Shown: positions 34,617-49,722 of the stretch, in pieces | How positions within the stretch are numbered: position 1 is the first letter of the stretch | Layout: each line of letters begins with the position of its first letter | Made by a program: the position numbers and the translations under genes | Assembly (NCBI GenBank): GCA_049973045.1 | Contig: JBMFJZ010000005.1 | Location: 71,966 to 135,965 of the forward strand | Source of the DNA: Bacteroidota bacterium | Lineage (GTDB): Bacteria > Bacteroidota > Ignavibacteria > 0-14-0-80-59-12 | Length of the DNA stretch: 64,000 bases | Direction: 5' to 3' | Notes under the pieces: generated by a model | What the model saw: only the letters and a program-made list of their open reading frames with translations | Told to the model about the DNA's origin: nothing | Database searches by the model: none

Positions 34617-34688
34617 TCCACAGTAGCTCAATGGTAGAGCATCCGGCTGTTAACCGGAGGGTTGCAGGTTCGAGTCCTGCCTGTGGAG
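34617..34688 (+). tRNA. tRNA-Asn (anticodon GTT)
   Basis: Hand-folded cloverleaf. Acceptor stem is tccacag/ctgtgga and D arm is gctc-aatggta-gagc. Anticodon arm is tccgg-ctGTTaa-ccgga with a 5-nt variable loop. T arm is gcagg-ttcgagt-cctgc and the discriminator is g. 72 nt, CCA not encoded. Confidence 0.9.
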
Positions 34689-34694
34689 CTGTGG

Positions 34695-34727
34695 AGGCGA
34701 CCCGCCGGTCGCCTTTAGTGTTTTATT
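34695..34727 (+). terminator. intrinsic terminator after tRNA-Asn
   Basis: Perfect 8-bp GC-rich stem aggcgacc-cgcc-ggtcgcct (34695..34714) followed by ttagtgttttatt. Confidence 0.6.
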
Positions 34728-34783: not shown

Positions 34784-35389
34784 TCACAATTTATCAGGGT
34801 TTTCATCATCCATAGCCCATTTCAACGGGTTTTCGTAAATGTATTGGCGGATGCGGTTTAATCCCTCATCCTCGCGGATGACCCGGTCGTGGTAACGGGA
34901 TTGCCAGATGGTGAGGCCTTTTGTTTTCCTCATTTCATTTATTTGTTTGGTCACAGCCGATTTGTATGATCGTATGATGGTCGATAATGTTCCGCGACGG
35001 GGTTTGCCGAATCGTTCGATTGGATGATTTTGTGCAATATCGGATTGTCGTAATGGTTGCAACGATTGTAATAATTGTAGAGACACGGCGTGCCGTGTCT
35101 CTACAACCATATTATTATCCATTTCATTTATCACAATGATCCCATGCACGTGGTTAGGCATTATTACAAATTCATCCAATGAAACGTGTGGAAAATGAAC
35201 CGGTATTTCCAACCAACATTGTTCGGCAATCCGTCCACAATCGGATAATTGCATTCCTCCATTAACGATGCGACCAAACAAACATTCACGGTTCGTGGTA
35301 ACGATGGTAACAAAGTACGCACCTGGTTGTCCGTAATCATACCCCTGCATGCGTGTGGTTTCTATGCGGTATCTGTTTCTGAATAACAT
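34784..35389 (-). mobile_element. IS200-like / REP-associated tyrosine transposase (RAYT)-like Y1 HUH protein gene
   Basis: 201 aa with GAYFVTIVTTNRE (beta1), the HUH motif MPNHVHGIIVI, and SYKSAVTK...WQSRYHDRVIRDE...IRQYIYENPLKW (Tyr helix). No IS ends or tnpB are visible. Confidence 0.8.
35084..35115. repeat. perfect 15-bp-stem palindrome with GTAG head inside the RAYT-like CDS
   Basis: ttGTAGagacacggc-gt-gccgtgtctCTACaa, which encodes ..VVETRHAVSLQ.. in the minus-strand ORF. Confidence 0.9.
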
Positions 35390-35424: not shown

Positions 35425-35880
35425 CTACCGCTGTGCAGTGTTTTCCCAGCGCTTCTGTTTTGGATTAGAAGAAAGGGGTTCATAGTCATATTTATTTAAA
35501 ATATCCTTCATTTTATCATGCACAAGATTTAAAACATCTTTCATTTCTGCTTTTCCACCGAGTTCAATAAGTGACCCTAAAATGGGTATTACAAATTTAT
35601 CCTCAGGGGTTCTCAAGCCCTTTTTCAACCTGCTTTTCACTCGCCTTTTTCGAACTTCAGCCGACACTCTTTCACTAAAAATCGTCTGCCATTCCTTCTG
35701 AAGTGATTTCACCCTTTCTCTGAAAGATTTTAGCCGCTCACCATTTTCAATAAGGGACTTTGCCTTATCAAAATCCCGGGTTTTAAGGAGTTTTCTCCTT
35801 CATTGCTGATGATATTGAAGACCTCTTCAATCTCCTCAAGCAAAATCTCAAAGGCGGTGTTTACTTCGTTTTTGTCCATA
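35425..35880 (-). pseudogene. frameshifted (and probably 3'-truncated) gene for a coiled-coil + Mrr_N-like winged-helix protein
   Basis: ATG at 35880 opens MDKNEVNTAFEILLEEIEEVFNIISNEGE. Near 35790 the frame shifts by one nt in an A-run, and the sense continues as KLLKTRDFDKAKSLIENGERLKSFRERVKSLQKEWQ... into ORF 35425..35712. The product ends abruptly at ..KQKRWENTAQR, where Mrr_N-type domains normally continue. Confidence 0.6.
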
Positions 35881-35962
35881 AAATACCTCCTCCTTCTATT
35901 GTTTTAATCTCCTCGTCTGTTAAACTATAAAGTTTATAAACCAGCTGGTCAATTGGGGCTTC
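35881..35962 (-). pseudogene. orphan 3' end of a methyltransferase gene (copy A)
   Basis: Minus strand translates as ..IDQLVYKLYSLTDEEIKTIEGGG. This is the same tail as the 1275-aa MTase (IDKLVYKLYDLTEEEIRIIEGG), and no upstream gene body is present. Confidence 0.65.
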
Positions 35963-35965
35963 AAG

Positions 35966-36688
35966 TTATTTGACTTTTTGTTTTTGAAACAGTATAGCTC
36001 CCATATATGTTTTAACATTTTCAATCTCAATATCTGGATAGTTGAGTTTGAAAGATTTAATAAGTTTGTTTTCGTTTAATGGCGGATGTTTTTCAAAAAT
36101 GAAATCTAAAAAGTTCCTGATTTTATCATCTTCCGAATAAACCATAAAAAATGGCATTATTATGTTAAAAAACATCTCTATTTTTCTTTGAGCTCCCACT
36201 CCCTCAAAATTCATTATTTTCTTTACCGCGTCTTTTGGATTTTTATTATTCAATTCTGCCTTAATACCCTCTAAAAAGAAATTTACTATTCCTTCATCTA
36301 TTGTATTTGATAGAAGAATTGAGATACCTTTGATTCTTTTTTCGGGAAAATTTTCCGGTCTTATGCCCTTATAGTTCCATACGGATTTATCGGTTTTTAA
36401 AGAAAAATCAAAATCCTTTGGCAATCCTTCTTTATCATTTGTAAAGCCTGCTCTGTATAAAAGGGCTTTTTCTATTATCGTTTTCTCTTTCAATCTTCTT
36501 ATTTCAGAGTAAGGAGTAATGAGTGCAAGTTCTAAAAAATTTACTTTGTTATGAGGATATCCAAGTGAAAGCAAAATTTCCCTGTATAGTGCTTCATCAG
36601 GCAGAGCAATTTTCAAAAGATTCTGCATTCGCTGTTTTTTTAATTCAAGCCATCTTGTGCCGAGTTGGTTCAGGTTGATATTTTTCAT
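35966..36688 (-). CDS. DUF2851-like protein, apparently N-terminally truncated
   Basis: 240 aa. EALYREILLSLGYPHNKVNFLELA and RPENFPEKRI resemble the C-terminal half of DUF2851 proteins (from memory). The first ~16 aa (NLNQLGTRWLELKK) are a junction sequence that recurs at 38528..38550. Confidence 0.4.
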   Translation of the reverse strand: MKNINLNQLGTRWLELKKQRMQNLLKIALPDEALYREILLSLGYPHNKVNFLELALITPYSEIRRLKEKTIIEKALLYRAGFTNDKEGLPKDFDFSLKTDKSVWNYKGIRPENFPEKRIKGISILLSNTIDEGIVNFFLEGIKAELNNKNPKDAVKKIMNFEGVGAQRKIEMFFNIIMPFFMVYSEDDKIRNFLDFIFEKHPPLNENKLIKSFKLNYPDIEIENVKTYMGAILFQKQKVK

Positions 36689-36707: not shown

Positions 36708-37433
36708 TCAAGCATTTAAAGAAACTTTGTGTGGATATTCGTTATATATTTTACCGTTTAATTTCCTTCCGTTTTTATGGTTAAAGACACCACCCCATTG
36801 CTTGAAAAAGAAAGAAATACCATTTTTTCTGCATTGACGGTAGATTTCCATAACCCACTCTTTTTTCATTGGTCGGGCACCTGGACCCGACTCCCCACCT
36901 ACAATTACCCAATCAATTCCCTTTGTTGGGAATTCAGAAATCGGTCCTAAAAGCGGTTCAAAAGAAATAAATTTAATCTTTGCTGGTGTCTGAAGGAGAT
37001 GATTAATTCTGTAAATGTAATCCGAGTTTTCCACAGAAACACCCATCCATATATTATCTGTCCATTCAACATGATTACAAACTTCAAGAAGTCGCTCTGA
37101 CCTTTTGGTTAAAACCTGAAATGTCAGATGTTTTGCTTTGTTCATCACTTTAAAAACCTCTTTTATGAAATCAAGTGGAACATCTTCGTGGAAAAGGTCT
37201 GACATGGAATTGACAAAAACGAAAGCAGGACCTTTCCAACGAAAAGGAACAGAAAGAAGGTCAGGATGCAAAGTCACTTCAAAACCGTTTTTGTATCTCG
37301 GATTTCCCATAAGCTGAAGACGCTTTGCGAAACGCTCAGCATAACAATTTTTGCACCCTGTACTTATTTTAGAACAACCTGTTACAGGATTCCAAGTGTA
37401 ATGTGTCCATTCTATTTTTGATTTTCCAGCCAT
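36708..37433 (-). CDS. DUF5131 / phage Gp37-Gp68 family protein (three-Cys motif)
   Basis: 241 aa starting KIEWTHYTWNPVTGCSKISTGCKNCYAE (C-x6-C-x2-C), then VFVNSMSDLFHE, WMGVSVE, FISFEPLLGPI, DWVIVGGESGPGARP and FFFKQWGG. Confidence 0.8.
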   Translation of the reverse strand: MAGKSKIEWTHYTWNPVTGCSKISTGCKNCYAERFAKRLQLMGNPRYKNGFEVTLHPDLLSVPFRWKGPAFVFVNSMSDLFHEDVPLDFIKEVFKVMNKAKHLTFQVLTKRSERLLEVCNHVEWTDNIWMGVSVENSDYIYRINHLLQTPAKIKFISFEPLLGPISEFPTKGIDWVIVGGESGPGARPMKKEWVMEIYRQCRKNGISFFFKQWGGVFNHKNGRKLNGKIYNEYPHKVSLNA

Positions 37434-37436
37434 AGT

Positions 37437-38342
37437 TTATCCCAACTTTTTTAATATATCATTGGCAATTTTTAATGCAGTTTTTGATGCCTTTTCATTT
37501 GCACATGCAAAAATGAGCAAGTAAATAGGATTTCGTTTGGAATTATAAAGTGCGCGTGGTTCTGATACAGCATAAAAGATTTCTTTTAACCTTTTGCAAA
37601 AATAATTGCCAATTTTAGTAATAGGAACTTTTTCTACATTCGTTTCAGGTCCAAAAAGTGTTTCTTTTTTGCTAACTTTATAAAATTCATTATACCATTC
37701 CTCCGTTCCAAAAAGTTTATTTAATCTCTCTCGTCTTTTATTGTCTATATTTCCATCTCTTTTAAGCAAGCGGTTTACGGCTACTCCTAAAGGGAACAAT
37801 ATCCAGCAGTCAATAGCCTTTGTTTTTGCTATCATTTCAAGGGTTTTCCATTCTACTTGCATTCCGTATGGGTCCAAAAAGACAAGAGCACGTTTTTTAC
37901 TCCAATCAGTAATCCTACAAAGTTTTTGAAGATATGAATTAGCGTCTTCATTTACAATTTTTGTTCTATCTTTTATATGTGAGAATTCTTTTTTTAAATT
38001 TTCTAATTCTTCACATTTTCCTTTATCCAATTCAATAAAGATAAATTCATCAAATGTTTCACCAGTTTTGTTATACATAGATTGTAAAGCAATTCGTGGA
38101 GAACCATCTAAAAATTTCCGAGTTTCTTCTTCAAAGAAAACGGCAAGATATCCTTTTTCCTCTGTATCTACTGCTCTATACCCTGGACCGGCGAAGGCGT
38201 CTATATAGATAATCTTATAATACCTCGCTTTTTCATTGCCCTTCATAATTGTTAGATAAGCATTTAAATATTTTTTCAAAGCTTCAAGTTTTTCTTCAGT
38301 CCAATCTCCTCCGAATGAATTTTTCTTTCTTACCATACTCAT
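37437..38342 (-). CDS. three-Cys-motif partner protein TcmP-like (SAM-MTase-like motif I)
   Basis: The track ORF 37437..38582 is a read-through of upstream remnant DNA, and the real start is probably MSMVRKKNSF at 38342. Key blocks are GGDWTEEKLEALKKYL and IYIDAFAGPGY (a D-x-F-A-G-x-G MTase motif-I look-alike). It ends 3 nt before the DUF5131 gene. Confidence 0.7.
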   Translation of the reverse strand: MSMVRKKNSFGGDWTEEKLEALKKYLNAYLTIMKGNEKARYYKIIYIDAFAGPGYRAVDTEEKGYLAVFFEEETRKFLDGSPRIALQSMYNKTGETFDEFIFIELDKGKCEELENLKKEFSHIKDRTKIVNEDANSYLQKLCRITDWSKKRALVFLDPYGMQVEWKTLEMIAKTKAIDCWILFPLGVAVNRLLKRDGNIDNKRRERLNKLFGTEEWYNEFYKVSKKETLFGPETNVEKVPITKIGNYFCKRLKEIFYAVSEPRALYNSKRNPIYLLIFACANEKASKTALKIANDILKKLG

Positions 38343-38456
38343 TACACACTCCTTGCTTTTTCTAATCTTGTTTTTTACAATGTGCGAATGATTATTCGCC
38401 CCTACCCAATATACTTCTTTTCGTTCTTGTTCTGTCAAGCCAAGGGCATCAAAAAC
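38340..38456. repeat. ~115-bp duplicated junction module, copy A (degenerate REP-like hairpin + RBS + ATG)
   Basis: Aligns by eye at roughly 90 percent identity to 39295..39406. It contains gcgaatgattattcgcccctac (38384..38405), in which the left arm of the hairpin is partly mutated. Confidence 0.8.
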
Positions 38457-38578
38457 AATATCATCAAGGGCTTTTCTATCGGGTAATGGATTTTTTCGCA
38501 GGCTACCTTTATCTCCCTTTTTCAGTCCAAGCCATTTTGTGCCGAGTTGGGGTAGGTTAAAAATAATTTCGTCATTCC

Positions 38579-38980
38579 TCAAATTTCATATCCTAAACTC
38601 TTTAAAAATTTTTCACATTCTTTTATAAATTCTTCGGCCTTTTCAATTATTTCCGATGTCCTTTCTAAACTCTGCATAAAAATAATTTCATAATCACCTT
38701 TTTGTCTTTCACTAAACGCTTCAATTATGTAACTATACAATTTTTCAGGTAACAATCCGGTTTTTATAAACTCTTTTCCAAAGAAGGAAATAACCGCTGT
38801 ATGTTTACTAAATTTTAAATCTTTTGTAAGCAAAATTGCGGTGGCACAGTAAAACATAGAATAGTATGCCCGTGATCCCGCAAAATCATAATCTCCTGCA
38901 TCTCTTAATAATTTCGCTGAATTTAAACTTCTCTCTGCTTTTTGAAGGAGTGCTTTTATTTCTTCTTGATACTTTTTCAT
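38579..38980 (-). CDS. HEPN domain protein
   Basis: 133 aa (AERSLNSAKLLRDAGDYDFAGSRAYYSMFYCATAILL..FSKHTAVISFFGKEF) with a 4-nt overlap with the upstream MNT gene. Confidence 0.75.
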   Translation of the reverse strand: MKKYQEEIKALLQKAERSLNSAKLLRDAGDYDFAGSRAYYSMFYCATAILLTKDLKFSKHTAVISFFGKEFIKTGLLPEKLYSYIIEAFSERQKGDYEIIFMQSLERTSEIIEKAEEFIKECEKFLKSLGYEI

Positions 38981-39297
38981 ATTTCTATTCCTTCTCCTTT
39001 CACGCTTTGCAAAAATGGGGTATTAAAGGAGTTAAAAATTGCATCAGGGTAGTCTATGAGAGAGATGACCACATCATTTTCCAAAGAAATATTAGAGACA
39101 GTGGTGTATATTTTTTCCTTTTCCTCTTTAGTAAGTTCTTCGCGCACCAATAATAACAAGTCGATATCGGAGAATTCTTTCTCTTCTCCCCTTGCATAAG
39201 AGCCAAAAAGGATAAGTTTTACAAATTTAAATCCCAATATCGCGATTATTTCCCTTTTCAGCTCATTTAGAATTTTATTTTTTCTTTCCTTATCCAT
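38977..39297 (-). CDS. minimal nucleotidyltransferase (MNT) domain protein
   Basis: ~106 aa with an ATG at 39297 (the track starts at GTG 39300). NTase motif is LFGSYARGEE..SDIDLLLLV. Confidence 0.75.
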   Translation of the reverse strand: MDKERKNKILNELKREIIAILGFKFVKLILFGSYARGEEKEFSDIDLLLLVREELTKEEKEKIYTTVSNISLENDVVISLIDYPDAIFNSFNTPFLQSVKGEGIEI

Positions 39298-39406
39298 CAC
39301 ACACTCCTTGCTTTTTCTAATCTGTTTTTTTACAGGGGCGAATGATTATTCGCCCCTACCAAATACTTTTCGCTCTTCTTCCGTCAAGCCAAGGGCATCA
39401 AAAAAC
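39295..39406. repeat. ~115-bp duplicated junction module, copy B, with an intact GTAG-headed REP-like hairpin
   Basis: ggggcgaat-gatt-attcgcccc followed by tac (39335..39359). On the minus strand this reads GTAGGGGCGAATAATCATTCGCCCC. Downstream on the minus strand lie AAGGAG and then the ATG of the MNT gene. Confidence 0.85.
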
Positions 39407-39415
39407 TTTTTATCT

Positions 39416-39658
39416 CTAACTTACTTCAATTATTTTTATCTCTTCCTCTGTTAAATCATATAGTTTATAAACCAGTTGGTCAATTTCTTCTTCAAGTTCT
39501 TTTACTTTTGCCTCATTCCCCTCTTTTAGAGGGGTGTCTTCAACTACCCCGTCCGCCTTTGGCGTCCACCCCTTCACAGAAGGGGAATTGAGGGAGAGGA
39601 TTTGATCTACAAGGTTTTCTATTTCACTGACTATCGGATGGGTTATTTCATTGCTTGT
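39416..39658 (-). pseudogene. orphan 3' end of a methyltransferase gene (copy B) carrying extra GC-rich hairpins
   Basis: Minus strand translates as ..VSEIENLVDQILSLNSPSVKGWTPKADGVVEDTPLKEGNEAKVKELEEEIDQLVYKLYDLTEEEIKIIEVS*. The intact MTase C-terminus reads QQIENLVSQILSLTQSPDYETNPQKQAKVKELEKEIDKLVYKLYDLTEEEIRIIEGG. Confidence 0.75.
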
Positions 39659-39678: not shown

Positions 39679-40179
39679 TTAAAACTTCCAACCTTCCCTT
39701 CTAAAGAAATCAATTAGACTGATGCATTCAATACCAAAATTTCGGCAGACAGCGGGTATCCTATTAGGTTTTGTTGGAGATTCCTCAGAGATAACTATAT
39801 ATTTGTTTCTCATATGCTCAAATTTACCTCTTTCTTCCTCATTTTTCACAATAGCAAGTGCAATCAACCACGGGTCAGCATTTGGCTCATCAGGTTTATC
39901 TGACTTTGATAAGAATGGATAGTTCTTCAAGGTTTCTTGAACTTTTTCTACCTGGTTTTTATCTGGTTTTTTAAACATTCTTTTTCTGAGCTTATCACGT
40001 GCCCATTTTTTAAGTTCATCATCCCCTTTTTCAATTTCTTTTTTTACTTCAATCGGCGCTATTAGTCTTTCGTTTTTACAAAGTTCATCTATTCTTTTCC
40101 ATAATCCAGAGAAGATATCTTTGGGGTATTTTTCTTTCATATCAATCAAACTGCTTGTATCAATGCAGTAAATATCCAC
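39679..40179 (-). CDS. DUF4411 family PIN-like protein
   Basis: 166 aa starting MDIYCIDTSSLIDMKEKYP and ending NRIPAVCRNFGIECISLIDFFRREGWKF, the typical DUF4411 layout. It starts 13 nt after the ImmA/IrrE gene. Confidence 0.75.
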   Translation of the reverse strand: MDIYCIDTSSLIDMKEKYPKDIFSGLWKRIDELCKNERLIAPIEVKKEIEKGDDELKKWARDKLRKRMFKKPDKNQVEKVQETLKNYPFLSKSDKPDEPNADPWLIALAIVKNEEERGKFEHMRNKYIVISEESPTKPNRIPAVCRNFGIECISLIDFFRREGWKF

Positions 40180-40192
40180 ATATTACTCCAGC

Positions 40193-41329
40193 TTATAACC
40201 CTGCGGATTCTGCCACCTTTTTCAAGCTATCCAACTTCAGGGATAAATACTCTATAGCCTCTGCAGTAGTTATAAAACCGCTCTTCTTTGAATTCATTAC
40301 AAGTGATATGAATTTTTTTCCCTTCTCCTGCAGGCATTTCTTATATGAAGGCAAATAAAAGCTAACACCTTTTTCTTTTTCATACTGGCTTCTAATTTTT
40401 GATACGGCATTTTCATATTCTTCCCATGTCACTAAATTCAATGTTCTGAACCTCGTAAGCATTGCATGTTTGCTAACCCTGAATTTATTTGATAAATTAT
40501 TTAATACTTCTAAACCAGCTCTTTTAAATATAAAGTCCTGATATTCCTTTTCTGTTTTTAAAACATCTTGCGGGATTAAAAGTTCCGACGCAAATTCATT
40601 ACACCAGTTTTCTACATCCATGTTTTGATTAGTTAAAGTTTGCTCATTTGCATAAATTTCTGGTATTTCCAATAGAATATGTGCGTATTCATGAAAAAGC
40701 GTAAAGATTCTTGCAAGGATATTATCAGTGGTGTTCAAAACAATTAGAGGTGGTTCTTTATCCATAAGAGAAAACCCTCTTGCATCCTCAAGAGGAAATC
40801 TAAATTGAAAAACTAAAATATTTAAATTTTCTATAGCTTTCCTCCATTCGTTAAATGCCATATAGGCATTTTTAAATTCAAATTGTTTCTCAATTGAGAT
40901 GCTAATCCTGTCCCTTTCTCGTCGTGCAATAACCGATGGGTCCTCACTTATGGAAGCTGAAGTAATGTCTGGTTTAGTAGAAACGTCAAGGTTTTTCATC
41001 AATTCGTTTGCAACTGACTGGTAATATCTGGCTTTTCTTATGGCTAATCTTAATTCTTTTGATAAATACTTCTCACTTTTGGGCATAATGCGGAAGGATG
41101 TGGAATATGATGGTTCTACAGGTGGTTCTGAAAGAAGAAAAACCGACGTAGGTCTCTTGAAAAGATGAGAAAGAAGTTCAAGTTGTCTGAAGGTAGGTTT
41201 TCTTTCCCCTACCTCTATTTTTTCATAGGTCTTTATTTTTCTGGTTATTTCTTCAATGCTAAACCCTGCACTCTCTCTTGCCCATTTAATAACTTCTGGA
41301 TTAACACTAATTTCAAATGACCTTGGCAT
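40193..41329 (-). CDS. XRE-type HTH + ImmA/IrrE family zinc metallopeptidase fusion
   Basis: 378 aa with an N-terminal HTH (IKWARESAGFSIEEITRKI...TFRQLELLSHLFKRP) and the HExxH motif FTLFHEYAHILL. Confidence 0.8.
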   Translation of the reverse strand: MPRSFEISVNPEVIKWARESAGFSIEEITRKIKTYEKIEVGERKPTFRQLELLSHLFKRPTSVFLLSEPPVEPSYSTSFRIMPKSEKYLSKELRLAIRKARYYQSVANELMKNLDVSTKPDITSASISEDPSVIARRERDRISISIEKQFEFKNAYMAFNEWRKAIENLNILVFQFRFPLEDARGFSLMDKEPPLIVLNTTDNILARIFTLFHEYAHILLEIPEIYANEQTLTNQNMDVENWCNEFASELLIPQDVLKTEKEYQDFIFKRAGLEVLNNLSNKFRVSKHAMLTRFRTLNLVTWEEYENAVSKIRSQYEKEKGVSFYLPSYKKCLQEKGKKFISLVMNSKKSGFITTAEAIEYLSLKLDSLKKVAESAGL

Positions 41330-41345
41330 AGATAACTCTCCTCTT

Positions 41346-42083
41346 TTATTTATTTGATCTAAAATACACTGCTTTGTCTAATTGCCTGAATAAAAATGAT
41401 ATAAAACTTAATATATCCAAACAATCTTCCTTAAATATTGGCCAGTGGAGTGCTGGTTCATGAGCTGTTGGGTTTCTGATTGCACTCATTAAACCAGCTG
41501 ACAAAAATTTAATACCATTTTGAAAATCCTTTTCTGTTTGAGTTTCACATTTTGTTATCTTTAAAACACCTTCTGGTGCCCAAACTTCCATCATTAATGC
41601 TTGTCCATCTTTATCGCTTTTTGATTTTTCTTTTACTAATTTGTTGTACACTTTTACAGCTTCAAATACTGCATGAAAATAATTTCCTTCCTTATATAGT
41701 TTCAGGCAATGCTTGAATATGAGTGGGTGAAAATTCCTCTGATAGAATTCACGTATTGATTCATCAAGGGATAAGTTTATTCCCCCTTCTTTTAAAATTT
41801 CGTCAATCTTTCTAATCTTCGTTTCAGGAGTTATTAATCTCAAAAATCTTATTAGATGCTGATTCCTTTCATCATTATTCATCTCTTGCTTTGCTAATGT
41901 AAGTATCCAATCATAAATTAACTTCGCTCGTCCTGAGGTAGTCGCCTCATTTGGAAATTCTTCAACATTAAACTTAAAAACCGATTTAGCAGCGCGATTT
42001 ATTTCATTAATTGAAGCGTCATATTTTAGCAAATCACCTACCTGTATTGCTATTAATCTATAATTCATACTTCCCTCCTTCAA
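41346..42083 (-). CDS. TIGR02391-family protein (C-terminal RNPxAH domain)
   Basis: 245 aa whose C-terminus (GIKFLSAGLMSAIRNPTAHEP...LDILSFISFLFRQLD) matches the TIGR02391 signature. The start (42083 or 42068) overlaps the MTase stop. Confidence 0.7.
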   Translation of the reverse strand: MKEGSMNYRLIAIQVGDLLKYDASINEINRAAKSVFKFNVEEFPNEATTSGRAKLIYDWILTLAKQEMNNDERNQHLIRFLRLITPETKIRKIDEILKEGGINLSLDESIREFYQRNFHPLIFKHCLKLYKEGNYFHAVFEAVKVYNKLVKEKSKSDKDGQALMMEVWAPEGVLKITKCETQTEKDFQNGIKFLSAGLMSAIRNPTAHEPALHWPIFKEDCLDILSFISFLFRQLDKAVYFRSNK

Positions 42084-45000
42084 TTATCCTTATCTCTTCC
42101 TCTGTTAAATCGTAAAGTTTATAAACCAACTTATCTATTTCTTTTTCAAGTTCTTTAACTTTTGCTTGTTTTTGTGGGTTTGTTTCGTAGTCCGGAGATT
42201 GGGTGAGGGAGAGGATTTGGGAGACAAGGTTTTCTATTTGCTGGACTATGTGCTGGTTTTGAGGGGTGATTTTCTTTATCGGCAGTTTCCCAATATAATA
42301 TTCATCAAAATCCATTGTCCTTATCGCTCTATTATAAACAAACCAGTAATAAAACCATTCTGCCAGCCGTGAGTTCAAAATTCCAAGTATATATTCATAT
42401 GAAAATATGTTGTCAGTTAAAAATGTATTCATGACTGTGTCAAGAGTTAGGAAACCATCTTTGTCATAAGTTGCCATTATGATTATCCTATCAAATGGGT
42501 TCATAACATGAGCAACAATTCTTTGAGAAATTATTTTTGGTCTCATTAGTGCCTGAATTTTTTTATTTTTTAACTCAGTTTTATCCAATTTTATATAATC
42601 AATCTTTCCATATATTTTATACTTACCAATGTTTTTACCTTTCAATATTATAACTTCTCCCTTATCTATGACTCTTTTCTGAAATGGCAATCCCCTAAAA
42701 GTTCTTGAAATTGATGATAATGGAAGAGAGTTTTCTTTAATTTTATAAAGAATACTTTTCTTAAAGTCATCCAGGTAGATAGGTATGATATTAAAATTAC
42801 AAGAGTCGCTAAGTGACACCTTGCCTAAGTATTTAATATTTTTTTCCCAGCCTTCAAATGTGAAGAATTCATAATCCGTTTGTTGAATATTACTTTTAAA
42901 AATAATGATTACCTGTTCTAATAAAACCTCTTCAAATGCCTTGCTCACATCCACAATGTCTATAAGAAGGTTTCTATTTAATACAAAACTTCTTGTTTTT
43001 TCCCATCCTTCTACGTAAGTAAGACTTTTGGGAACTATGTAGGCTACTATGCCTTTGAGATTGGTAATGTGAGTAGCTCTTTCAATAAAGAAAGATGCTG
43101 AATTTTTTCTGGAGTCAAAATACTTGTAATTGGCTACGAGTTTATTTCTATTACTTAAAATTCCACTATACGGTGGGTTGGCAATTACAATATCAAAACC
43201 GCCAGGAATAATTACAGGTTCAAATGCTGTTTCAATGGTTACAGAGGGCTGAAGCTGTGCAGAGGGCTGAAACTGTGCAGAGGGCTGAAGCCCTCTGTTG
43301 AGGGGAGGTAGATTGTGCTTTAGATGATTGTTCTCTGTATATCTGATGGCGTTGTAAAGGTGGTCTTCACTTTCAAGATAAGTATGGCTGTATCCGTCTG
43401 ACCATATTTTTGTTTGTCTTCCTTTGCCTTCAACAGACAGCTTTAGCTGTCTGGCAAGATAAAACGAAGAATATCCTTTTAACTGGCGAACAATCTCCTG
43501 TAACTCTTCTTCTTCACAAACAACTACACAGTGAACATGGTCCGAAAGCACATTACCCGCAAGCACCCTGTATCCAGCATCTTTGATTTTTTTATTCAAT
43601 GCCTCACATACAATCTTTCTCATTTCATCTGTTAAGATCACCGGCTCCCCAATTTTTATTCCGTATTCTACAACTTCTTCTTTTACCCTGCTGTTGTGTG
43701 TTACCCATGTCACAAGATATGCTTTCCATTTTTTCTCAATCTTCTTTTTATGAAAAACCTCTGAAAAATAAACCTCAAAGTCAAATTCTTTATGTCCCTT
43801 TGTGATTTCAAAAATTAGTTTCTCAATCTCTCTTTTTAATTCTTGCTTTTTTGTAGGGTTTGTTTCACTAAAATACTTTTGTTTTAATTCTTCAAGTTTT
43901 TTAAATGCATTGGCATTAAATAAATCTTTTTCAACTTCCAAAAGCGAATCCCCACAGACAACCTTATAATCAAGGTTCGGAAGTGGCTTTATGTTATAAA
44001 AATCTTCTTCATCTACAATCATAGAAAGCCAGAACCTGAGTTTGCAGATTTCAACTGAACCTGCGTCAATGTCAACACCATAAAGTGAGTTTTCTATACA
44101 ATGGCGCTTGAGTTCATAGGATGTCAATTTACTGCCTGACTCTTGCCCCACTCCCTGTGCAGGTCCCTCTGCAACCCCCCGCTTAAGCAGGGGGTTGAAT
44201 GATAAGGAGTTGAGATAAACAGAAAGCAGGATTCTCAACTTTACAATCTCGTGCATCATACCTATTGGAAAGGCACCAGAGCCAACTGCTGGGTCACATA
44301 CTTTTATATCAGCAAGCAATCTATCAATTTCTTTTGCATTTTCTATTATGCTTTCAGGTATCTTATGTTCATACTTTGTTTCTTTCTGCTCACCTCTTTC
44401 AATCTTGTTTCTCTTTTCAAGGGCTGTTCGCTCATTTTCTAAAATCAAATCTGCATATTTCACAAATTTTTCTATATCTTCTTTCTTTACTTTTCCTTTT
44501 AGTTCCGTTTCAAGATAATTTATTAAACTCTCCTGACACATATAATGCACAATCTCTCTTGGTGTATAATAAACACCGTATTCTTTGTTAAATTTTGTTT
44601 CCTCTCCTTTTTTACCTGATTTCAAAACCTTTACATACTCATCAAAGTTATCTGGACGAATAGCGTTCAGTTTCTCATAGATTTTTCCAAGTAGTTCCGG
44701 GTCAAGGGCAACCTCTTTTTCAAGAGGTTCTTCCTCATTAACCGTGAAATTATATCTATCAAAAATATCAAGTATTCCGTCTCCAATATCACCTTCTTTT
44801 GTTCTATTTGAATTTGAGAAAAGTTCATTCGGTAAAAGAATATCTACATTAACCCAATTAAAACCGTTTATCGGATCAAAGAGACCACCATTTAAGAAAG
44901 GTATTTTACAATTAAATCTGCTGTAATAATGGTCATCTGCACTTCTATCTGTTCTTAATGCTTCGTAAAAAAGTGGTTCAAGGATATCGTTATAAAAGTT

Positions 45001-45885
45001 TTTGTAATCTCCAAACTCTTTATGGAATAATCTTCTTATAAAATCCTTTGGACCTGTTCCCCAAGGGTTTCCTCTTCCAACACCAAACCAACCTTTCTTT
45101 TGTAAAAAATAAAGAAAGACAATTTGACCAAGGAGTTTTTTAGCAAAATAAGCACTGTTTATGTTTTTCTTTGAAAATTCGTTTTTCAGAGGGCTAAAGC
45201 CCTCTGTTGAATACTTTTTGCCATCTGGTGAAAGTAATTTATCCAGCGCATCTTTTGTTCTTATAAACAAATTCCTATATTTTTCAAAGAATTCCCTGGT
45301 AACAACCTCAACATCAAAAGCTTTTTCTAAATCCTCAAGTGAAGGTTTCCATTCATCTTTTTCAAGAATTGGTAAAAAACTACTCTGTGCGGTATGGCTT
45401 TTCTCATTTTTGCCGACTAAAAATGACCATCTTTTTGCAGGTGTGAATTCTTCTTTGACTTTGATTTTTCCTGCGGGGGTCTCTTCAAATCTATAATCCA
45501 TCTTGACAAGAGAAAAACGCCAATCTTCACTATCAGGAGAGATAAAGGCAACGAGTGCCGCGTCTTTTAACTTTCCACCTCTACTCCCTTTCAAATACCA
45601 GGCAATAAAGTTTCTTTGCATTGTCCTTGCCCGCTCAAGAGAGGTCTCTTTTCTTAATAGGACAATCAATAGGTCAATTTCTTTGTCATCATAGGAATAT
45701 TTGCCAATCCTTTCTAAAGAGTTTATGTATAGCTTGAAGGCGTCGGGGATATAGTTTCCTTGATAAGAGAAGGGCTTTTCCTCAAATGTTTTTAAAAGCT
45801 CCTTCAGAAATTTGGTAAATTGCTTTTTATCAAAAGGGTTTTCAAAAGTTTCAATTATCAGATTTTTTGCCTGTTCTTTATTCAT
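42058..45885 (-). CDS. 1275-aa gamma-class N6-adenine DNA methyltransferase (Eco57I/PglX/MmeI-like N-terminal region, TaqI-like C-terminal TRD) with an embedded Y1 transposase domain
   Basis: Family hallmarks IVFLYFLQKKGWFG, IPFLNGGLFDP and YGVYYTPREIV. Motif I is VCDPAVGSGAFP, followed by LYGVDID. Motif IV is GGFDIVIANPPYSG. The C-terminal tail is IDKLVYKLYDLTEEEIRIIEGG. No PD-(D/E)xK nuclease motif was recognised. Confidence 0.85.
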   Translation of the reverse strand: MNKEQAKNLIIETFENPFDKKQFTKFLKELLKTFEEKPFSYQGNYIPDAFKLYINSLERIGKYSYDDKEIDLLIVLLRKETSLERARTMQRNFIAWYLKGSRGGKLKDAALVAFISPDSEDWRFSLVKMDYRFEETPAGKIKVKEEFTPAKRWSFLVGKNEKSHTAQSSFLPILEKDEWKPSLEDLEKAFDVEVVTREFFEKYRNLFIRTKDALDKLLSPDGKKYSTEGFSPLKNEFSKKNINSAYFAKKLLGQIVFLYFLQKKGWFGVGRGNPWGTGPKDFIRRLFHKEFGDYKNFYNDILEPLFYEALRTDRSADDHYYSRFNCKIPFLNGGLFDPINGFNWVNVDILLPNELFSNSNRTKEGDIGDGILDIFDRYNFTVNEEEPLEKEVALDPELLGKIYEKLNAIRPDNFDEYVKVLKSGKKGEETKFNKEYGVYYTPREIVHYMCQESLINYLETELKGKVKKEDIEKFVKYADLILENERTALEKRNKIERGEQKETKYEHKIPESIIENAKEIDRLLADIKVCDPAVGSGAFPIGMMHEIVKLRILLSVYLNSLSFNPLLKRGVAEGPAQGVGQESGSKLTSYELKRHCIENSLYGVDIDAGSVEICKLRFWLSMIVDEEDFYNIKPLPNLDYKVVCGDSLLEVEKDLFNANAFKKLEELKQKYFSETNPTKKQELKREIEKLIFEITKGHKEFDFEVYFSEVFHKKKIEKKWKAYLVTWVTHNSRVKEEVVEYGIKIGEPVILTDEMRKIVCEALNKKIKDAGYRVLAGNVLSDHVHCVVVCEEEELQEIVRQLKGYSSFYLARQLKLSVEGKGRQTKIWSDGYSHTYLESEDHLYNAIRYTENNHLKHNLPPLNRGLQPSAQFQPSAQLQPSVTIETAFEPVIIPGGFDIVIANPPYSGILSNRNKLVANYKYFDSRKNSASFFIERATHITNLKGIVAYIVPKSLTYVEGWEKTRSFVLNRNLLIDIVDVSKAFEEVLLEQVIIIFKSNIQQTDYEFFTFEGWEKNIKYLGKVSLSDSCNFNIIPIYLDDFKKSILYKIKENSLPLSSISRTFRGLPFQKRVIDKGEVIILKGKNIGKYKIYGKIDYIKLDKTELKNKKIQALMRPKIISQRIVAHVMNPFDRIIIMATYDKDGFLTLDTVMNTFLTDNIFSYEYILGILNSRLAEWFYYWFVYNRAIRTMDFDEYYIGKLPIKKITPQNQHIVQQIENLVSQILSLTQSPDYETNPQKQAKVKELEKEIDKLVYKLYDLTEEEIRIIEGGKYEL
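43201..43740 (-). mobile_element. in-frame IS200/IS605-type Y1 (HUH) transposase domain inside the MTase ORF (aa ~716-895)
   Basis: The ORF carries YLVTWVTHNSRV, LSDHVHCVVV (HUH), LKGYSSFYLARQL, KIWSDGYSHTYL and YNAIRYTENNH. These are collinear with IS608 TnpA blocks YHIVWCPKYRRKV, DKDHIHILA, AKGRSSRILRQEF, TLWTNSCFISTV and VKQYIENQ (from memory). Confidence 0.75.
43242..43297. repeat. 18-nt tandem repeat (2.5 copies) ending in a perfect 9-bp palindrome, at the 3' junction of the Y1 insert
   Basis: cagagggctgaagctgtg / cagagggctgaaactgtg / cagagggct-ga-agccctctg. It encodes RGLQPSAQFQPSAQLQPS. Confidence 0.9.
44172..44197. repeat. GC-rich near-perfect palindrome in-frame in the MTase ORF
   Basis: caaccccccgctt/aagcagggggttg with one mismatch. 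It encodes ..FNPLLKRGV.. and lies within a ~60-nt GC-rich patch between motif I and YGVDID. Confidence 0.85.
45187..45206. repeat. second copy of the cagagggct-NN-agccctctg palindrome, in-frame in the MTase ORF
   Basis: cagagggct-aa-agccctctg followed by ttga, the same flank as the 43278..43297 copy. It encodes ..STEGFSPLKN.. Confidence 0.9.
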
Positions 45886-45888
45886 TGC

Positions 45889-46224
45889 TTATATCTCGCT
45901 TATTATTTGATTTATAATTTCATATAGTTTGGGTAGCCTTTCTTTTATTACTTTCCATACAACCCTGTAATCTACCCCAAAATATTCATGGATCAATAAA
46001 TTTCTCATTCCTACTACACTTTTCCATCTGATTTGAGGATATTTTTTTCTTATTTCTCTGGGAATCTGCTTTGAAGCCTCACCAATTATCTCAAGACTTC
46101 TAACAAAGGCCCTTTTAAGTTCTTCATTTTGAATAAAGTTTTCATAACTCAAGTCCTTAGTTCTTTCTATTAAGTATTCGCACTCAGTTTTTATGTCGGA
46201 CAAATAATCCCTTATTTCCCTCAT
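45889..46224 (-). CDS. DUF86 / HepT-type HEPN toxin
   Basis: 111 aa with the Rx4HxY motif [13 protein letters not shown]. It has a 4-nt overlap with mntA and ends 3 nt before the MTase start. Confidence 0.85.
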
Positions 46225-46514
46225 ATATATTGCACCTCTTGAAGGATGATTCTCCCGATGTATGGTTTGAGTGCAGATTTCATGACAAGGTCAATCTTGA
46301 CTTTTAGTTTTTTAGACAGAAAATCCTGAATCTCAATGAAAGTCCATAAATCTGGCACCTCATAGAAATCAATTAAGATATCAAGGTCACTTCTTTTTTT
46401 CTGTTTGCCTTTTAAATAAGAACCAAAAATTCCAATCTCTTTTACTTTATATTTTTCTCTAAGTAATGGCTTTAGTTCTAATAACTTCTTTTTTTTCTCT
46501 TCAATTGTTTTCAT
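46221..46514 (-). CDS. MntA-type nucleotidyltransferase antitoxin
   Basis: 97 aa with the motif [23 protein letters not shown]. Its start overlaps the helicase stop by 14 nt. Confidence 0.85.
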
Positions 46515-49500
46515 TGCTTCCCCTTGCTAAATAAAGTGATAAAATAACTTCCCTTTTTCCTTCTGTTATAGCAGAAGTCTCTGCATAATGGCTTTTAAGA
46601 AAAGCAGGTGAAATCTCTCTTTGTAGGGTCCCAATAACTTTTAATGGATTTTGAATGTCTGTTCCAAGTTTATTCAAGGTTTTTAAAGCTCTCTGAACTG
46701 TCTTTTTAGGTAATGAACCTTCTTCAAGTCGGTTTATCACCTTTTTAAGATATTCTTCCTGGTCATCTGTAAGTTGCTTGCTATTTTTCTGTGTCACTTT
46801 AAGGATTTTAAGAAGTTTTGTTGAGCTATCTCTACCTTTCTTAGAACGGATTTCTATCATCTCCTCAATTGTGGCATTAAAAAAAGCAGTTTTGTTTTTA
46901 TCAAGGAGTTCGTAATATTTTTCAAGTGGTAGTTTTGCTCTTTTTTCATCTGGGGAACTTTCAAGAATCTTTGCAGATGTCAAAAAGTCAAGTTCTATCG
47001 TGGATTTGTTACTTGATAAAAAGAATTTCATAAGGTTTCCTTTTCTAAAGAAAGTAAGCAAAGACTCTGGCGCTGCTATAGTTTCTGAGTCTCGCGAAAA
47101 AATCTTTGCTGAGCGGGCTTTCTTGGGAAGACGCTTTATTTTTTCAAAAAGTTCAGGATTCTTATCTCTTATATCTTCAATAATTCTTAAATACTTAAGT
47201 TCACTTTCTTCTTCCTCGTCTTCTGTAATGGTTTTCTTTGATAGCAGTTTGTCAAATAATTCATGGGAAGATACAGGTTCTCCCTCTGTAAGGATTGAAG
47301 AATCACCACCAAGCAATGTTAAAAATGCCTCTATTTTTGAGCGGGCAATATTTGTAAGTTCAATTTCAGAATCTGATTGTTTCGTTGGGAAAAAGTTGAA
47401 AGCATAGATTTTATCAAACTTTGTATCTATACGATTTATCCTTCCTACTCTTTGCATTAACCTTGTAGGATTCCATGGGATATCATAATTTATGACGATG
47501 TTTGAGCGATGAAGATTTACTCCTTCAGAAAGAACTTCGGTTGAAACGAGGATTCTATAATCGTCTTTAATGTTCCTTACCCTTGCATCAAAGTTTTCTA
47601 TAACTTTATCCCGAACTATCTCTGGAGAATTGCCATGGAAAAGTAGTGCTATATCGCCAAATTCTTTATTTATATTTTTAGTTAAATATTCTGCTGTCTC
47701 TTTTGATTCTGTAAATATAATTAGCTTGTTGTTCTTAAGAAGGCTATTATTTTTTAAATTGTGCGCTAGGGTTTCTAATTTGGGGTCTCTTCTTACTTTC
47801 TCCCACATTGATTTAATATCTCTAAGGTTTTGAAGGTCATCTTTGAGGGCTGTTTCAAAATCAGGTTTGAATTCTTTCGCATCATACTTTTCTGCTTTTC
47901 CTTCATCAATTAACTTCTGGACTTCCTCATCATCTCCCTGCTCTAGGAGTTCAAAAATTTTGTTAATATATTTCTTGCTTACGTAAATATTCCCTTTTTC
48001 ATATTCCTTAATGAACATCTCATAAGATTTTATAAATCTATCAATGCTTTTTCTAAAGGCATAAAAACTGCTCTCCAGACGCTTCACAAGCAGAACCTTC
48101 ATAAATCCACCCATATTCCTTTGAGACTGTGCTTCAAAATCTGAAATTCCTTTTTTTAAGTAGAGCAAAGGAGTATAACGGATATACTTAAATTCTTGCG
48201 TTATTAACCTAACAGTTTCCATGAAGATTCCATCTTCTTCATCGCTTAGTTGATAATATAAAGGTTTTGGGTCTTCTACATTCGGGAATTTGACATTATT
48301 TCTTTTTAAATCATCTTCAAAGTATTTTTCAATTTCTGTTCTTGTTCTTCTAACCATTAAATATTTCAAAACCTTATCCCGTATTTCTTTTGCATTACTT
48401 CTTGTTATATCAAGGAATTTATTATAATCTTTCTGGCGGTTGACTTTTTTTAACCTCCCCTCAAGTCTTCCGAAGAATTCTTCAAGATTTGTAACTCCGG
48501 GGATAGTGCTTTTTTGGGTATTCTGAAAGAGTTTAATCTGTGCAAGGATATCTTTTGGTGAGTTATTATAAGGGGTAGCGGAGACCAAAATTACTCTTTT
48601 TCCGCGACAAATTTCAGCAATATCTTCATAACTAATTGTTGTTTCTGTCCTAAAACGATGTGCTTCATCTATAATAATATTTTTGTACTCTCTCTGCTCT
48701 ATTAACTCTTTTGCACAATCAAGTTTACCAACAGAGATAAACTCAGCGGGAATATGAAAATCGGAAAAGACATTTGGCCAGGAACCTGGATTATTTCTAT
48801 TAAGCAGTGCTGGTGGTGCAATAACAAGTGTTCTTCCATCAAGTTGTCCTGCAAGCATAGTGGCAACATAAGTTTTCCCAAGTCCCACTACATCAGAAAT
48901 AAAAACACCGCCATACTCTTCAAGTAATTTCTTGGCGTTTAAAACTGCTTGTTCTTGATATTCAAGCTTCTTAAAACCCTCGGGTAAATATTTTATGAAC
49001 ACCTCATCCGTAAGACTCAGTTCATTTTTGAAATACTCATATAAAAATTTCAGATACAATTCGTAAGGGGTTATGTCTTGCCTCAGCCAGCTTTTTGTTT
49101 GAATTGTCTGAATATATTTTTCGCTTATATCAACTGCATCTCTCCATAATTCTTCAAATTTCTGTTTAGCAAAATCGTAGTCAGCTCGGCTCTTTAATTC
49201 AACGTTGAACTCAAGGCTATCAATTAGTCCTGATTGTGTAAAATTACTGGAGCCGGTGATAATCCTACCAACGTCTCTATCTCCCTCCATAAAGGTCATT
49301 ATATATAACTTAGCGTGAACGTGCTGGGAAGGGTACGCTCTTGTTTCTAACTTACCACTTTTTAACCATTCGATAAATTTACAGATCCCTTCTTCCACTT
49401 TTTGGCTATCTTCTGATTCTTCCATTTCTTTTTCTACCAGATTTTCAAAGACCTCTTTTGCTTCGGCATGGGAAAATCGAATTTGCTTGTTTTCACTTGC

Positions 49501-49722
49501 TGCAGTTTTAATCAAATCATATGTTTCTCTTGATGTAGAAATTCCTATAAGAATCCTTATCTTTTGAGTTTTCTCTAATGATTTATAAATGGCATAAAAC
49601 CCGCTTGTATAAAAATAACCCACGAGGCAGTCAAAAAAGCGCGAGTCCTTAATTAGCACCTCAAATCTTTCTTTAAGGGCGTGGCCAGGTTCATTTGTTA
49701 TAAACGTTAGATCACTGTCCAT
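46501..49722 (-). CDS. PLD-like nuclease domain + SNF2-family helicase fusion
   Basis: ORF 46501..49824, with the likely start [13 protein letters not shown] at 49722. The N-terminal PLD-like signature is HVHAKLYIM...[15 protein letters not shown]2/DEAH motifs are [43 protein letters not shown] and QRVGRINRI. Confidence 0.85.

Follow-up and report, generated by a model that had tools for sequence, protein, structure and literature searches.

Pairs of an SNF2 helicase and a PglX-like DNA methyltransferase (MTase) are common to several methylation-based systems, namely BREX type 3, class 1 DISARM, ARMADA and MANTIS/Gao_RL (PMC12839542; bioRxiv 10.64898/2026.09.23.753747; PMC12458937). In MANTIS, the N6-adenine MTase MtsC sets the specificity, MtsD joins an N-terminal HKD nuclease to an SF2 motor, sites are asymmetric and hemimethylated in an R-M-like logic, and loading of the MTase onto DNA depends on the AAA+ protein MtsA (bioRxiv 10.64898/2026.09.23.753747). 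We analysed a 64,000-nucleotide stretch (which we refer to as the window) of contig JBMFJZ010000005.1 from a Bacteroidota bacterium of the Ignavibacteria, in which seven minus-strand open-reading frames (ORFs) at 39679-49722 include an HKD(PLD)-SNF2 helicase-nuclease and a PglX/MmeI-like MTase. An original prediction, made from the letters of the DNA, had proposed a seven-gene composite defence system around a reduced two-component restriction-modification (R-M)-like core. We find it probable that the conserved functional unit is this core, a two-gene, ATP-dependent R-M-like defence module, and not the seven genes.

To follow the pair across genomes, 80 loci were collected with the MTase from one-genome-per-species contigs (genome set, 74 with upstream DNA) and 80 with the helicase from metagenome contigs (metagenome set, 65 with usable downstream DNA), giving 160 loci in all. 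In about 70 of the 74 genome loci the gene immediately before the MTase, in the same orientation, is the helicase, and the gap between them is 25 nt or less in about half of the genome loci. Searched from the other side, an MTase start follows the helicase in 62 of the 65 metagenome loci, 47 of these with a gap of 30 nt or less. A conserved third gene was sought both upstream and downstream and none was common to more than 3 of 48 loci, and one locus (L084) consists of a bare helicase-MTase pair amid housekeeping genes. The two-component core of the original prediction is borne out by this co-conservation in both search directions. Core loci occur in more than 15 phyla, archaea included, with representatives in Kryptoniota, WOR-3, Ignavibacteria, Desulfobacterota, Aminicenantes, Planctomycetota, Chloroflexota, Bacteroidota, Patescibacteria, Atribacterota, Bacillota, Thermotogota and one halobacterial metagenome-assembled genome. 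The core proteins share 50-80% identity between phyla, which implies that the core has spread horizontally.

The helicase-nuclease gene (46501-49722, minus strand) encodes 1073 aa from its ATG; the ORF reaches 49824 with a TTG start, and we regard ATG 49722 as the better start because the alignments of orthologues begin there. Domains were assigned by Pfam, PADLOC and NCBIfam profile searches of the window ORFs. The helicase carries the Pfam domains PLDc_2, SNF2-rel_dom, ResIII and Helicase_C, its best PADLOC match is an unnamed 'HKD+Snf2' model (C3a139, 2e-43), and its matches to DrmD, PLD_Helicase and HmaA are partial only. Across 52 helicase orthologues there is little or no variation in the HxK, GSSN, GLGKT, DEAH and QRVGRINR motifs. 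A complete HKD active site needs two copies, as in Nuc, BfiI and SauUSI, and because each helicase polypeptide has one HKD half-site, cleavage should need two copies of the protein. No recognisable modified-base reader domain was found in the helicase by the Pfam scan. The HKD-SNF2 protein is likely the restriction subunit.

The second gene of the core (42058-45885, minus strand) encodes a 1275-aa gamma-class N6-adenine DNA MTase with Eco57I and N6_Mtase domains and a TaqI_C-type target recognition domain (TRD), and is the predicted modification and specificity arm. The IPFLNGGLF, YYTP and NPPY hallmarks quoted in the original prediction are all in its translation, as the quoted HxK...GSxN and SNF2 motifs are in that of the helicase. 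Motifs I and IV are invariant across the MTase family and residues 1-715 are conserved at a mean identity of 55-86%, the TRD at residues 900-1200 drops to 16-33%, the pattern expected of swappable specificity domains, and the last ~70 residues are conserved again. A phmmer search with the window MTase gave no match among PDB sequences, and the family profile matched CamA, M.BseCI, PglX/BrxX, TaqI and BsaXI in the PDB over the C-terminal half only. We also examined an AlphaFold model (pLDDT 78) of an insert-free homologue, which is 74% identical to the window MTase over the conserved N-terminal 56% of the query; its best full-length Foldseek matches are PglX/BrxX and MmeI, and BpuSI is also similar. 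The N-terminal 205 residues of the window MTase itself fold confidently (pLDDT 85, pTM 0.83), and a Foldseek search of this domain against the PDB returned nothing at E<1e-3 and noise with TM <0.3, which we read as no known nuclease fold and not as proof of inactivity. No conserved (D/E)xK motif or catalytic triad was seen in the N-terminal domain, and neither the MmeI_N nor the MmeI_hel Pfam domain matched the MTase. The sole nuclease-type fold inside the protein is an inserted Y1 domain, described below, which is absent from ~95% of family members. Because the MTase N-terminal domain shows no nuclease fold, the restriction arm is predicted to be the helicase-nuclease.

The MTase matches the PADLOC REase_MTase_IIG model PDLC03596 (E=5.6e-285), and because of this match standard tools would call 'RM type IIG' from the MTase gene alone, a call with no demonstrated nuclease behind it. 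As in Type IIG enzymes, MTase and TRD share one polypeptide; a fused endonuclease domain was not found, and the modelled folds point to an MTase without a recognisable nuclease of the Type IIG kind despite the PDLC03596 match. The MTase might instead be a self-sufficient Type IIG enzyme, and the PLD-SNF2 protein a separate neighbouring system such as a SauUSI-like modification-dependent enzyme or an accessory. The PADLOC match would agree with this, as would the resemblance of the homologue's fold to MmeI and BpuSI as well as to PglX and the PLD-helicase layout that SauUSI shares. We consider it improbable, however, as the two genes are linked on the same strand near-obligately, often overlapping or no more than 25 nt apart, in many phyla and in both search directions, and both the MTase N-terminal domain, with neither nuclease fold, catalytic triad nor MmeI-type domains, and the helicase, with no recognisable modified-base reader, speak against it.

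We therefore return to the two-gene module, for which a mechanism can be proposed. The MTase, built of a family-specific N-terminal domain, a helical domain, a gamma-class N6-adenine MTase domain and the swappable TaqI_C-type TRD, would read a short target and methylate adenine, so that self DNA is marked. MmeI, PglX, MtsC and Type ISP enzymes suggest by analogy that this target probably lacks symmetry and receives its methyl group on a single strand only. At an unmodified site the MTase would recruit the helicase-nuclease, which would translocate on double-stranded DNA with ATP and then cleave, most plausibly on the encounter of two complexes or two protomers, as modelled for Type ISP and for MANTIS/SauUSI. 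Alternatively, the pair may act in the manner of BREX or DISARM, with foreign DNA excluded by helicase remodelling or a block to replication in place of HKD cleavage, or with a need for unlinked host factors. The MTase family resembles PglX/BrxX in structure over its full length, which is compatible with such a role, SNF2 and PglX-like pairs also occur in BREX type 3, class 1 DISARM, ARMADA and BR systems, and the nuclease activity of MtsD has not yet been measured (bioRxiv 10.64898/2026.09.23.753747). The HKD residues H, K and GSSN are nonetheless invariant in the 52 orthologues, which argues for an active phosphodiesterase, and we think this alternative unlikely.

The other genes of the locus are distributed differently from the core pair. 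ORF calling of the window confirmed all seven genes in one orientation, and the order, junctions and domain calls of the original prediction match exactly: from helicase to DUF4411 gene, the junctions are a 14-nt overlap, a 4-nt overlap, a 3-nt gap, a 26- or 11-nt overlap, a 16-nt gap and a 13-nt gap. In the slot between helicase and MTase lie an MntA-type nucleotidyltransferase antitoxin gene (46221-46514, minus strand, Pfam NTP_transf_2 2e-16) and, overlapping it by 4 nt, a HepT-type HEPN RNase toxin gene (45889-46224, minus strand, Pfam HepT-like 3e-29); this adjacency makes the pair, from its profiles, a predicted MntA-HepT type VII toxin-antitoxin (TA) module. Downstream of the MTase, and on the same minus strand, follow a TIGR02391/Hypoth_Ymh HEPN-family gene (from 41346 to 42083 with a TTG start or 42068 with an ATG start; Pfam 2e-33, TIGR02391 7e-29, PADLOC PD-Lambda-3_B 2.5e-23), a gene for a helix-turn-helix and M78 (ImmA/IrrE) protein resembling the RosmerTA antitoxin RmrA (40193-41329; HTH_3, Peptidase_M78, PADLOC RmrA models down to 1e-20), and a DUF4411 gene (39679-40179; Pfam 4e-34), whose product is the presumed toxin partner of the RmrA-like protein and matched no PADLOC model.

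Across the collected loci these genes are rare companions of the pair. MntA occupies the helicase-MTase slot only in the genome loci L005, L013, L019 and, as a partial match, L022, in L085 and in 2 of the 80 metagenome loci, Ymh lies downstream of the pair in only two genome loci (L013, L058) and no metagenome locus, and RmrA/DUF4411 accompanies the pair in one to two loci per set, with both following the MTase in L018. In roughly one of every two genome loci and one of every five metagenome loci, the slot itself is widened to 0.2-2.1 kb. Its contents vary: among ~29 loci (between L005 and L079) it holds SLFN_AlbA_2 with HATPase_c_4 in ~10, NYN in 4, AbiEii with DUF6922 in 3, MntA/HepT in 3-5, Bro-N in 2, and DUF559, PemK, PIN and TumE in one each. 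In this the expanded slot resembles the cargo sites within Type I R-M loci, and HEPN/MNT and Ymh genes inside R-M operons are a documented theme (PMC3710099).

A second feature of the locus is the presence of displaced copies of the MTase 3' end. One such remnant of a homologous MTase 3' end lies at 39424-39644 (minus strand), beyond the seven genes; an 88-nt repeat in it is 88% identical to 42078-42165 in the MTase gene, and it translates to a sequence ending in AKVKELEEEIDQLVYKLYDLTEEEIKIIEVS followed by a stop. Another, at 35893-35980 (minus strand), falls into one repeat family with the MTase 3' end at 42078-42165, is 81% identical to the copy at 39424-39511 and translates to IDQLVYKLYSLTDEEIKTIEGG. 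A further duplicated boundary segment pairs 38320-38455 with 39275-39404, and extra downstream copies of the MTase 3' end were found in nine other loci (for example L013, L024, L032 and L132). The comparison suggests that these copies are scars left where cassettes were acquired through recombination at the conserved end of the MTase gene, and that the MntA-HepT, Ymh and RmrA-like/DUF4411 genes are variable passengers accreted onto the core. The downstream cassettes would have been joined by such recombination, and the TA and HEPN passengers are probably independent abortive-infection or addiction modules, providing layered defence and/or addiction. The slot and the 3'-end scars together offer a concrete picture of how a defence island grows. 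The seven genes could still be read as one composite system, as first proposed, with the HEPN and TA proteins as obligate effectors or regulators of the core, a reading that is encouraged by the tight spacing and overlaps through all seven genes and by the recurrence of HEPN proteins in R-M operons (PMC3710099). We judge this highly improbable, since the accessory genes stand beside the pair in only a handful of the 160 loci, the slot content is highly variable, bare two-gene loci exist and MTase 3'-end scars separate the cassettes.

The locus is part of a low-GC island of ~15 kb (32-36% GC against ~48% on both flanks), bounded by a tRNA-Asn gene (34617-34689, plus strand, beside hrcA/grpE) and a gcvP-like gene. 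tRNA genes are classical integration sites of genomic islands; a repeat scan of the island found no att-like direct repeats that pair the tRNA-Asn edge with the far edge. The island extends 4.5 kb past the 39679 side with five further co-oriented genes, and neither this part nor the tRNA-Asn gene had been noticed in the original prediction. Here a second tightly coupled cluster (36708-39300, minus strand) comprises an MNT/HEPN pair (38977-39300 and 38579-38980) followed by TcmP and DUF5131 genes (36708-38582), which match the PADLOC candidate system PDC-M41A/B (1e-113 and 1e-115). TcmP/DUF5131 genes also lie directly behind the MTase in L080, and TcmP-like sequence does so in L035 and L056. 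The window TcmP ORF (37437-38582, minus strand, 381 aa from TTG) begins with an 80-aa extension like the MTase C-terminal tail (DDIVFDALGLTEQERKEVYW), then a GGGGCGAATnATnATTCGCCCC palindrome, and its true start is probably the Met at ~38342. At the old end of the island, a short Mrr_N-like ORF (35425-35712, minus strand) and a DUF2851 fragment (35966-36688, minus strand), which covers profile positions 146-284 of 375 only, are seemingly decayed.

A further element, overlooked in the original prediction, is embedded in the MTase gene. An IS200/RAYT-like Y1 (HUH) transposase element of 180 aa (43204-43743, minus strand, MTase aa 715-894) is joined in frame to FSEVFHKK on one side and GGFDIVIANPPY on the other, immediately ahead of the NPPY motif. 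The earlier statement that the MTase has no recognisable nuclease of its own holds for the N-terminal domain, where no nuclease fold was found, and not for the protein as a whole, which contains this HUH/Y1 domain. The domain matches Pfam Y1_Tnp (3e-11, 43.7 bits against a cut-off of 23) and NCBIfam REP_Tyr_transpos (4e-15), its NCBIfam equivalog scores lie under their cut-offs (55.9 against 80 and 35.8 against 55), and a weak PDB match is to IS200 transposase. Its HVH and RY motifs are intact, as in Y1 (HUH) enzymes, and its activity is predicted from these motifs. The boundaries follow from insert-free homologues 84% identical in the core, which read FSEVFHQK-GGFD; the empty site is ...AAAAG|GGTGGTTTTGA. 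The GC content of the insert is 0.41, compared with 0.34 in the rest of the MTase gene. At its right end a hairpin (43242-43296, minus strand) of three 18-nt repeats (CAGAGGGCttcaGCCCTCTG) folds as single-stranded DNA (ssDNA) at -12.6 kcal/mol (z=-3.45), and equivalent right-end hairpins are carried by L003, L085 and L084, with different stem sequences and the palindromy kept. Neither a left-end hairpin nor a start codon of its own was found in the element. A solo in-frame copy of the right-end hairpin lies at 45188-45205 (minus strand, MTase aa ~227, 24 of 25 nt identical including flanking bases, z=-5.12), and a GC-rich palindromic REP-like in-frame insertion of 28 aa lies at 44119-44202 (minus strand, MTase aa 562-589, 'site A'; hairpin 44172-44197, z=-3.89). 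Besides the Y1 element with its right-end hairpin, the MTase hosts these two as REP-like offshoots.

Similar Y1 domains are embedded in many other MTases. When the domain was used as the query of an exhaustive search, 412 relatives emerged at E<=0.001. Among the best 150 cluster representatives, 61 are at least 400 aa long, and all 61 match the window MTase by BLASTP at 24-47% identity, and in most of them the Y1 domain is flanked by motif I on its N-terminal side and NPPY on its C-terminal side; the 35 longest carriers all match the PADLOC Type IIG MTase models PDLC03609, 03604 and 03596. In at least 60 other distant Eco57I-type MTase clusters the domain sits at one shared site, between 'AFDWxxEFPxVF' and 'GGFDVVIGNPPY'. 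Of 65 embedded copies, 60 retain HUH and the tyrosine, and an alignment of 35 proteins with a mean column identity of 23% shows no variation at H, H and Y. Stand-alone relatives also exist (for example P0124), one of them between yidC and mnmE. Carriers are scattered among insert-free nearest neighbours, and Y1 similarity does not track host similarity: the window Y1 is 66% identical to one whose host MTase flank is 43% identical, and 43-60% identical to the Y1s of its own family, where the flanks are 56-62% identical.

Classical RAYTs were found at two further in-frame sites of the core genes. One is site A of the MTase (aa ~560), occupied in 9 of 176 family sequences (L019, L029, L076, P0006, P0013, P0046, P0116, P0119 and P0028, of which L019/P0119 and L029/P0028 are near-identical pairs), and the other is at aa ~885 of the helicase in 4 of 52 orthologues (L042, L059, L063 and L079), all single ORFs of 1287-1312 aa. 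At both sites the RAYTs are flanked by translated REP arrays (TDIPVCES / SQTGMSVL / VTQAFLP / HRQDACD), and L020 has a REP array without a RAYT at the helicase site. In the window, a free-standing RAYT-like Y1 gene (34784-35389, minus strand; NCBIfam REP_Tyr_transpos 70 bits against a cut-off of 80) lies between the tRNA gene and the island, its ORF broken in frame by a hairpin whose stem measures 14 bp (35075-35106, VVETRHAVSLQ), and an additional REP-like hairpin lies at 34692-34717.

For the embedded element itself, intein-like splicing was considered and rejected, as there is no Cys, Ser or Thr at either junction and no HN motif, and a target-site duplication was rejected because the 'EK...EK' repeat of some elements is absent in the window. 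From these comparisons it is most likely a selfish, site-specific, homing-like in-frame insertion that is translated with the host protein and does not destroy it. Among described elements, the ShiLan HNH element of phage methylases comes closest (PMC11855218). Set beside the in-frame selfish insertions (ShiLan, inteins and Rickettsia palindromic elements) and the IS200/IS605 TnpA and RAYT/REP systems, the embedded element differs in having a Y1/HUH enzyme instead of HNH or LAGLIDADG, no splicing motifs, a right-end hairpin as the only hairpin found at its ends, no start codon of its own, and cellular Eco57I-type MTases as hosts. A literature search in an incomplete library found no description of Y1 domains inside MTases, and we see about even chances that the domain represents an undescribed class of mobile element, an IS200/RAYT-type transposase in frame within Eco57I/PglX-type MTase genes, always where the 'EFPxVF' helix joins the 'GGFDVVIGNPPY' catalytic strand, that spreads homing-like between unrelated families. 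More boldly, the embedded HUH domain may have been co-opted by defence systems as a hairpin- or ssDNA-specific nuclease or sensor. If the element is mobile, it would be an HUH-based counterpart of inteins and homing endonucleases, and it poses the question of why R-M MTases, lethal to the host if lost, are favoured homes.

The insertions also raise the prospect that the locus is a relic in this genome, its MTase inactivated by the Y1 insertion beside NPPY and by the REP-like insertions. A single MTase gene with three in-frame foreign segments, and the decayed DUF2851 and Mrr_N pieces and MTase remnants elsewhere in the island, lend this some colour; however, the 1275-codon ORF is intact with all MTase motifs present, the helicase-nuclease is intact and would be toxic without protection, and at least 60 divergent MTase clusters share this insertion architecture and have kept motif I and NPPY intact. 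We hold decay of the locus to be improbable.

Several points weigh against the two-gene module as a working R-M-like system. PADLOC files the MTase family as Type IIG REase-MTase, and a divergent nuclease may reside in the unmatched N-terminal domain, which the empty fold search would be compatible with. The 180-aa insertion before the catalytic NPPY might impair this copy of the MTase. The window locus has no MtsA-like loader, so the analogy with MANTIS may fail. Promoter and terminator scans of the locus were at chance level (-35/-10-like sites at 49927-49899 and 39483-39455 are merely suggestive), and the operon structure is read from spacing alone. Finally, methylation, cleavage and defence by any core member are deduced from gene content, co-conservation, motif conservation and the variability of TRD and cargo, alongside the anatomy and distribution of the insertions.

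Compared with described systems, MANTIS/Gao_RL (Gao_29, BREX-related BR type-2, DUF499-centred) is the closest named system to the module, because MtsD too carries an HKD nuclease at its N terminus, in one polypeptide with an SF2 motor. Both have an HKD-helicase and an N6-adenine MTase, and the window helicase partly matches PADLOC PLD_Helicase (2e-27) and NCBIfam phospholipD_antiphage (1e-41). In contrast to MANTIS, the DUF499 AAA+ protein (MtsA) and DUF3780 (MtsB) are absent from the island and from the 160 related loci, the NCBIfam NF042964 score is 143 against a cut-off of 1100, and the MTase of the window family is ~1100 aa long, PglX/MmeI-like and equipped with N-terminal and helical domains of its own. 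Class 1 DISARM (DrmD, DrmMI, DrmA, DrmB and DrmC) similarly combines an SNF2 helicase, an N6-adenine MTase and a PLD protein (partial matches to DrmD, 2e-37, and DrmMI, 1e-17), yet its PLD is separately encoded whereas here it is fused to SNF2, the DrmD equivalog NF038317 reaches 145 bits where 610 is the cut-off, and DrmA (YprA-type helicase) and DrmB (DUF1998) are absent in the island, whose ORFs all fall into other families, with no conserved extra gene in the related loci. BREX PglX/BrxX and the Type IIG/IIL enzymes MmeI and BpuSI share the MTase architecture, the IPFLNGGLF/YYTP/NPPY hallmarks and the best full-length Foldseek matches; they differ in that PglZ, BrxC, BrxL and BrxA/B of BREX type 1 are not encoded in the island, the PglX equivalog NF033452 reaches 84 bits where 500 is the cut-off, and the window MTase has no MmeI-type N-terminal nuclease. 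All of the SNF2 and PglX-like systems, BREX type 3 and ARMADA included, depend on additional core proteins (DUF499 and DUF3780, DrmA/DrmB or another YprA-type helicase, or PglZ/BrxC), and neither this locus nor the related loci have any of them. For the window proteins, all NCBIfam system equivalog scores are far under their cut-offs. The absence of DrmA/DrmB and of BREX partners, as originally proposed, is therefore upheld in the island, and on classification the outcome is divided, PADLOC calling the MTase alone Type IIG (PDLC03596) and the part sets of DISARM and BREX not being found. A search of the incomplete literature library found no name for the two-gene helicase-MTase core, in keeping with the prediction that no named system matches, and the core is apparently an unnamed minimal split helicase-nuclease/MTase R-M-like system, mislabelled Type IIG by tools. 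If the core defends cells, many automatically annotated 'Type IIG' loci would prove to be two-subunit ATP-dependent systems.

Type ISP enzymes act at asymmetric sites and couple cleavage to translocation, and in LlaGI and LlaBIII the order of activities is the same as in our pair: nuclease, SF2 motor, gamma-class N6-adenine MTase and TRD. No sequence-level PDB match to Type ISP enzymes was seen, and the pair differs in having two polypeptides and an HKD nuclease in place of Mrr/PD-(D/E)xK. In function the core looks like a Type ISP enzyme divided over two proteins, HKD taking the place of Mrr. If it defends cells, it would be the smallest of the methylation-based systems that pair a PglX-like MTase with an SNF2 motor, alongside BREX type 3, DISARM, ARMADA, MANTIS and other BR systems, and, free of AAA+ loaders and YprA helicases, it could provide a tractable model for how PglX-like enzymes hand over unmodified sites to a translocating nuclease.

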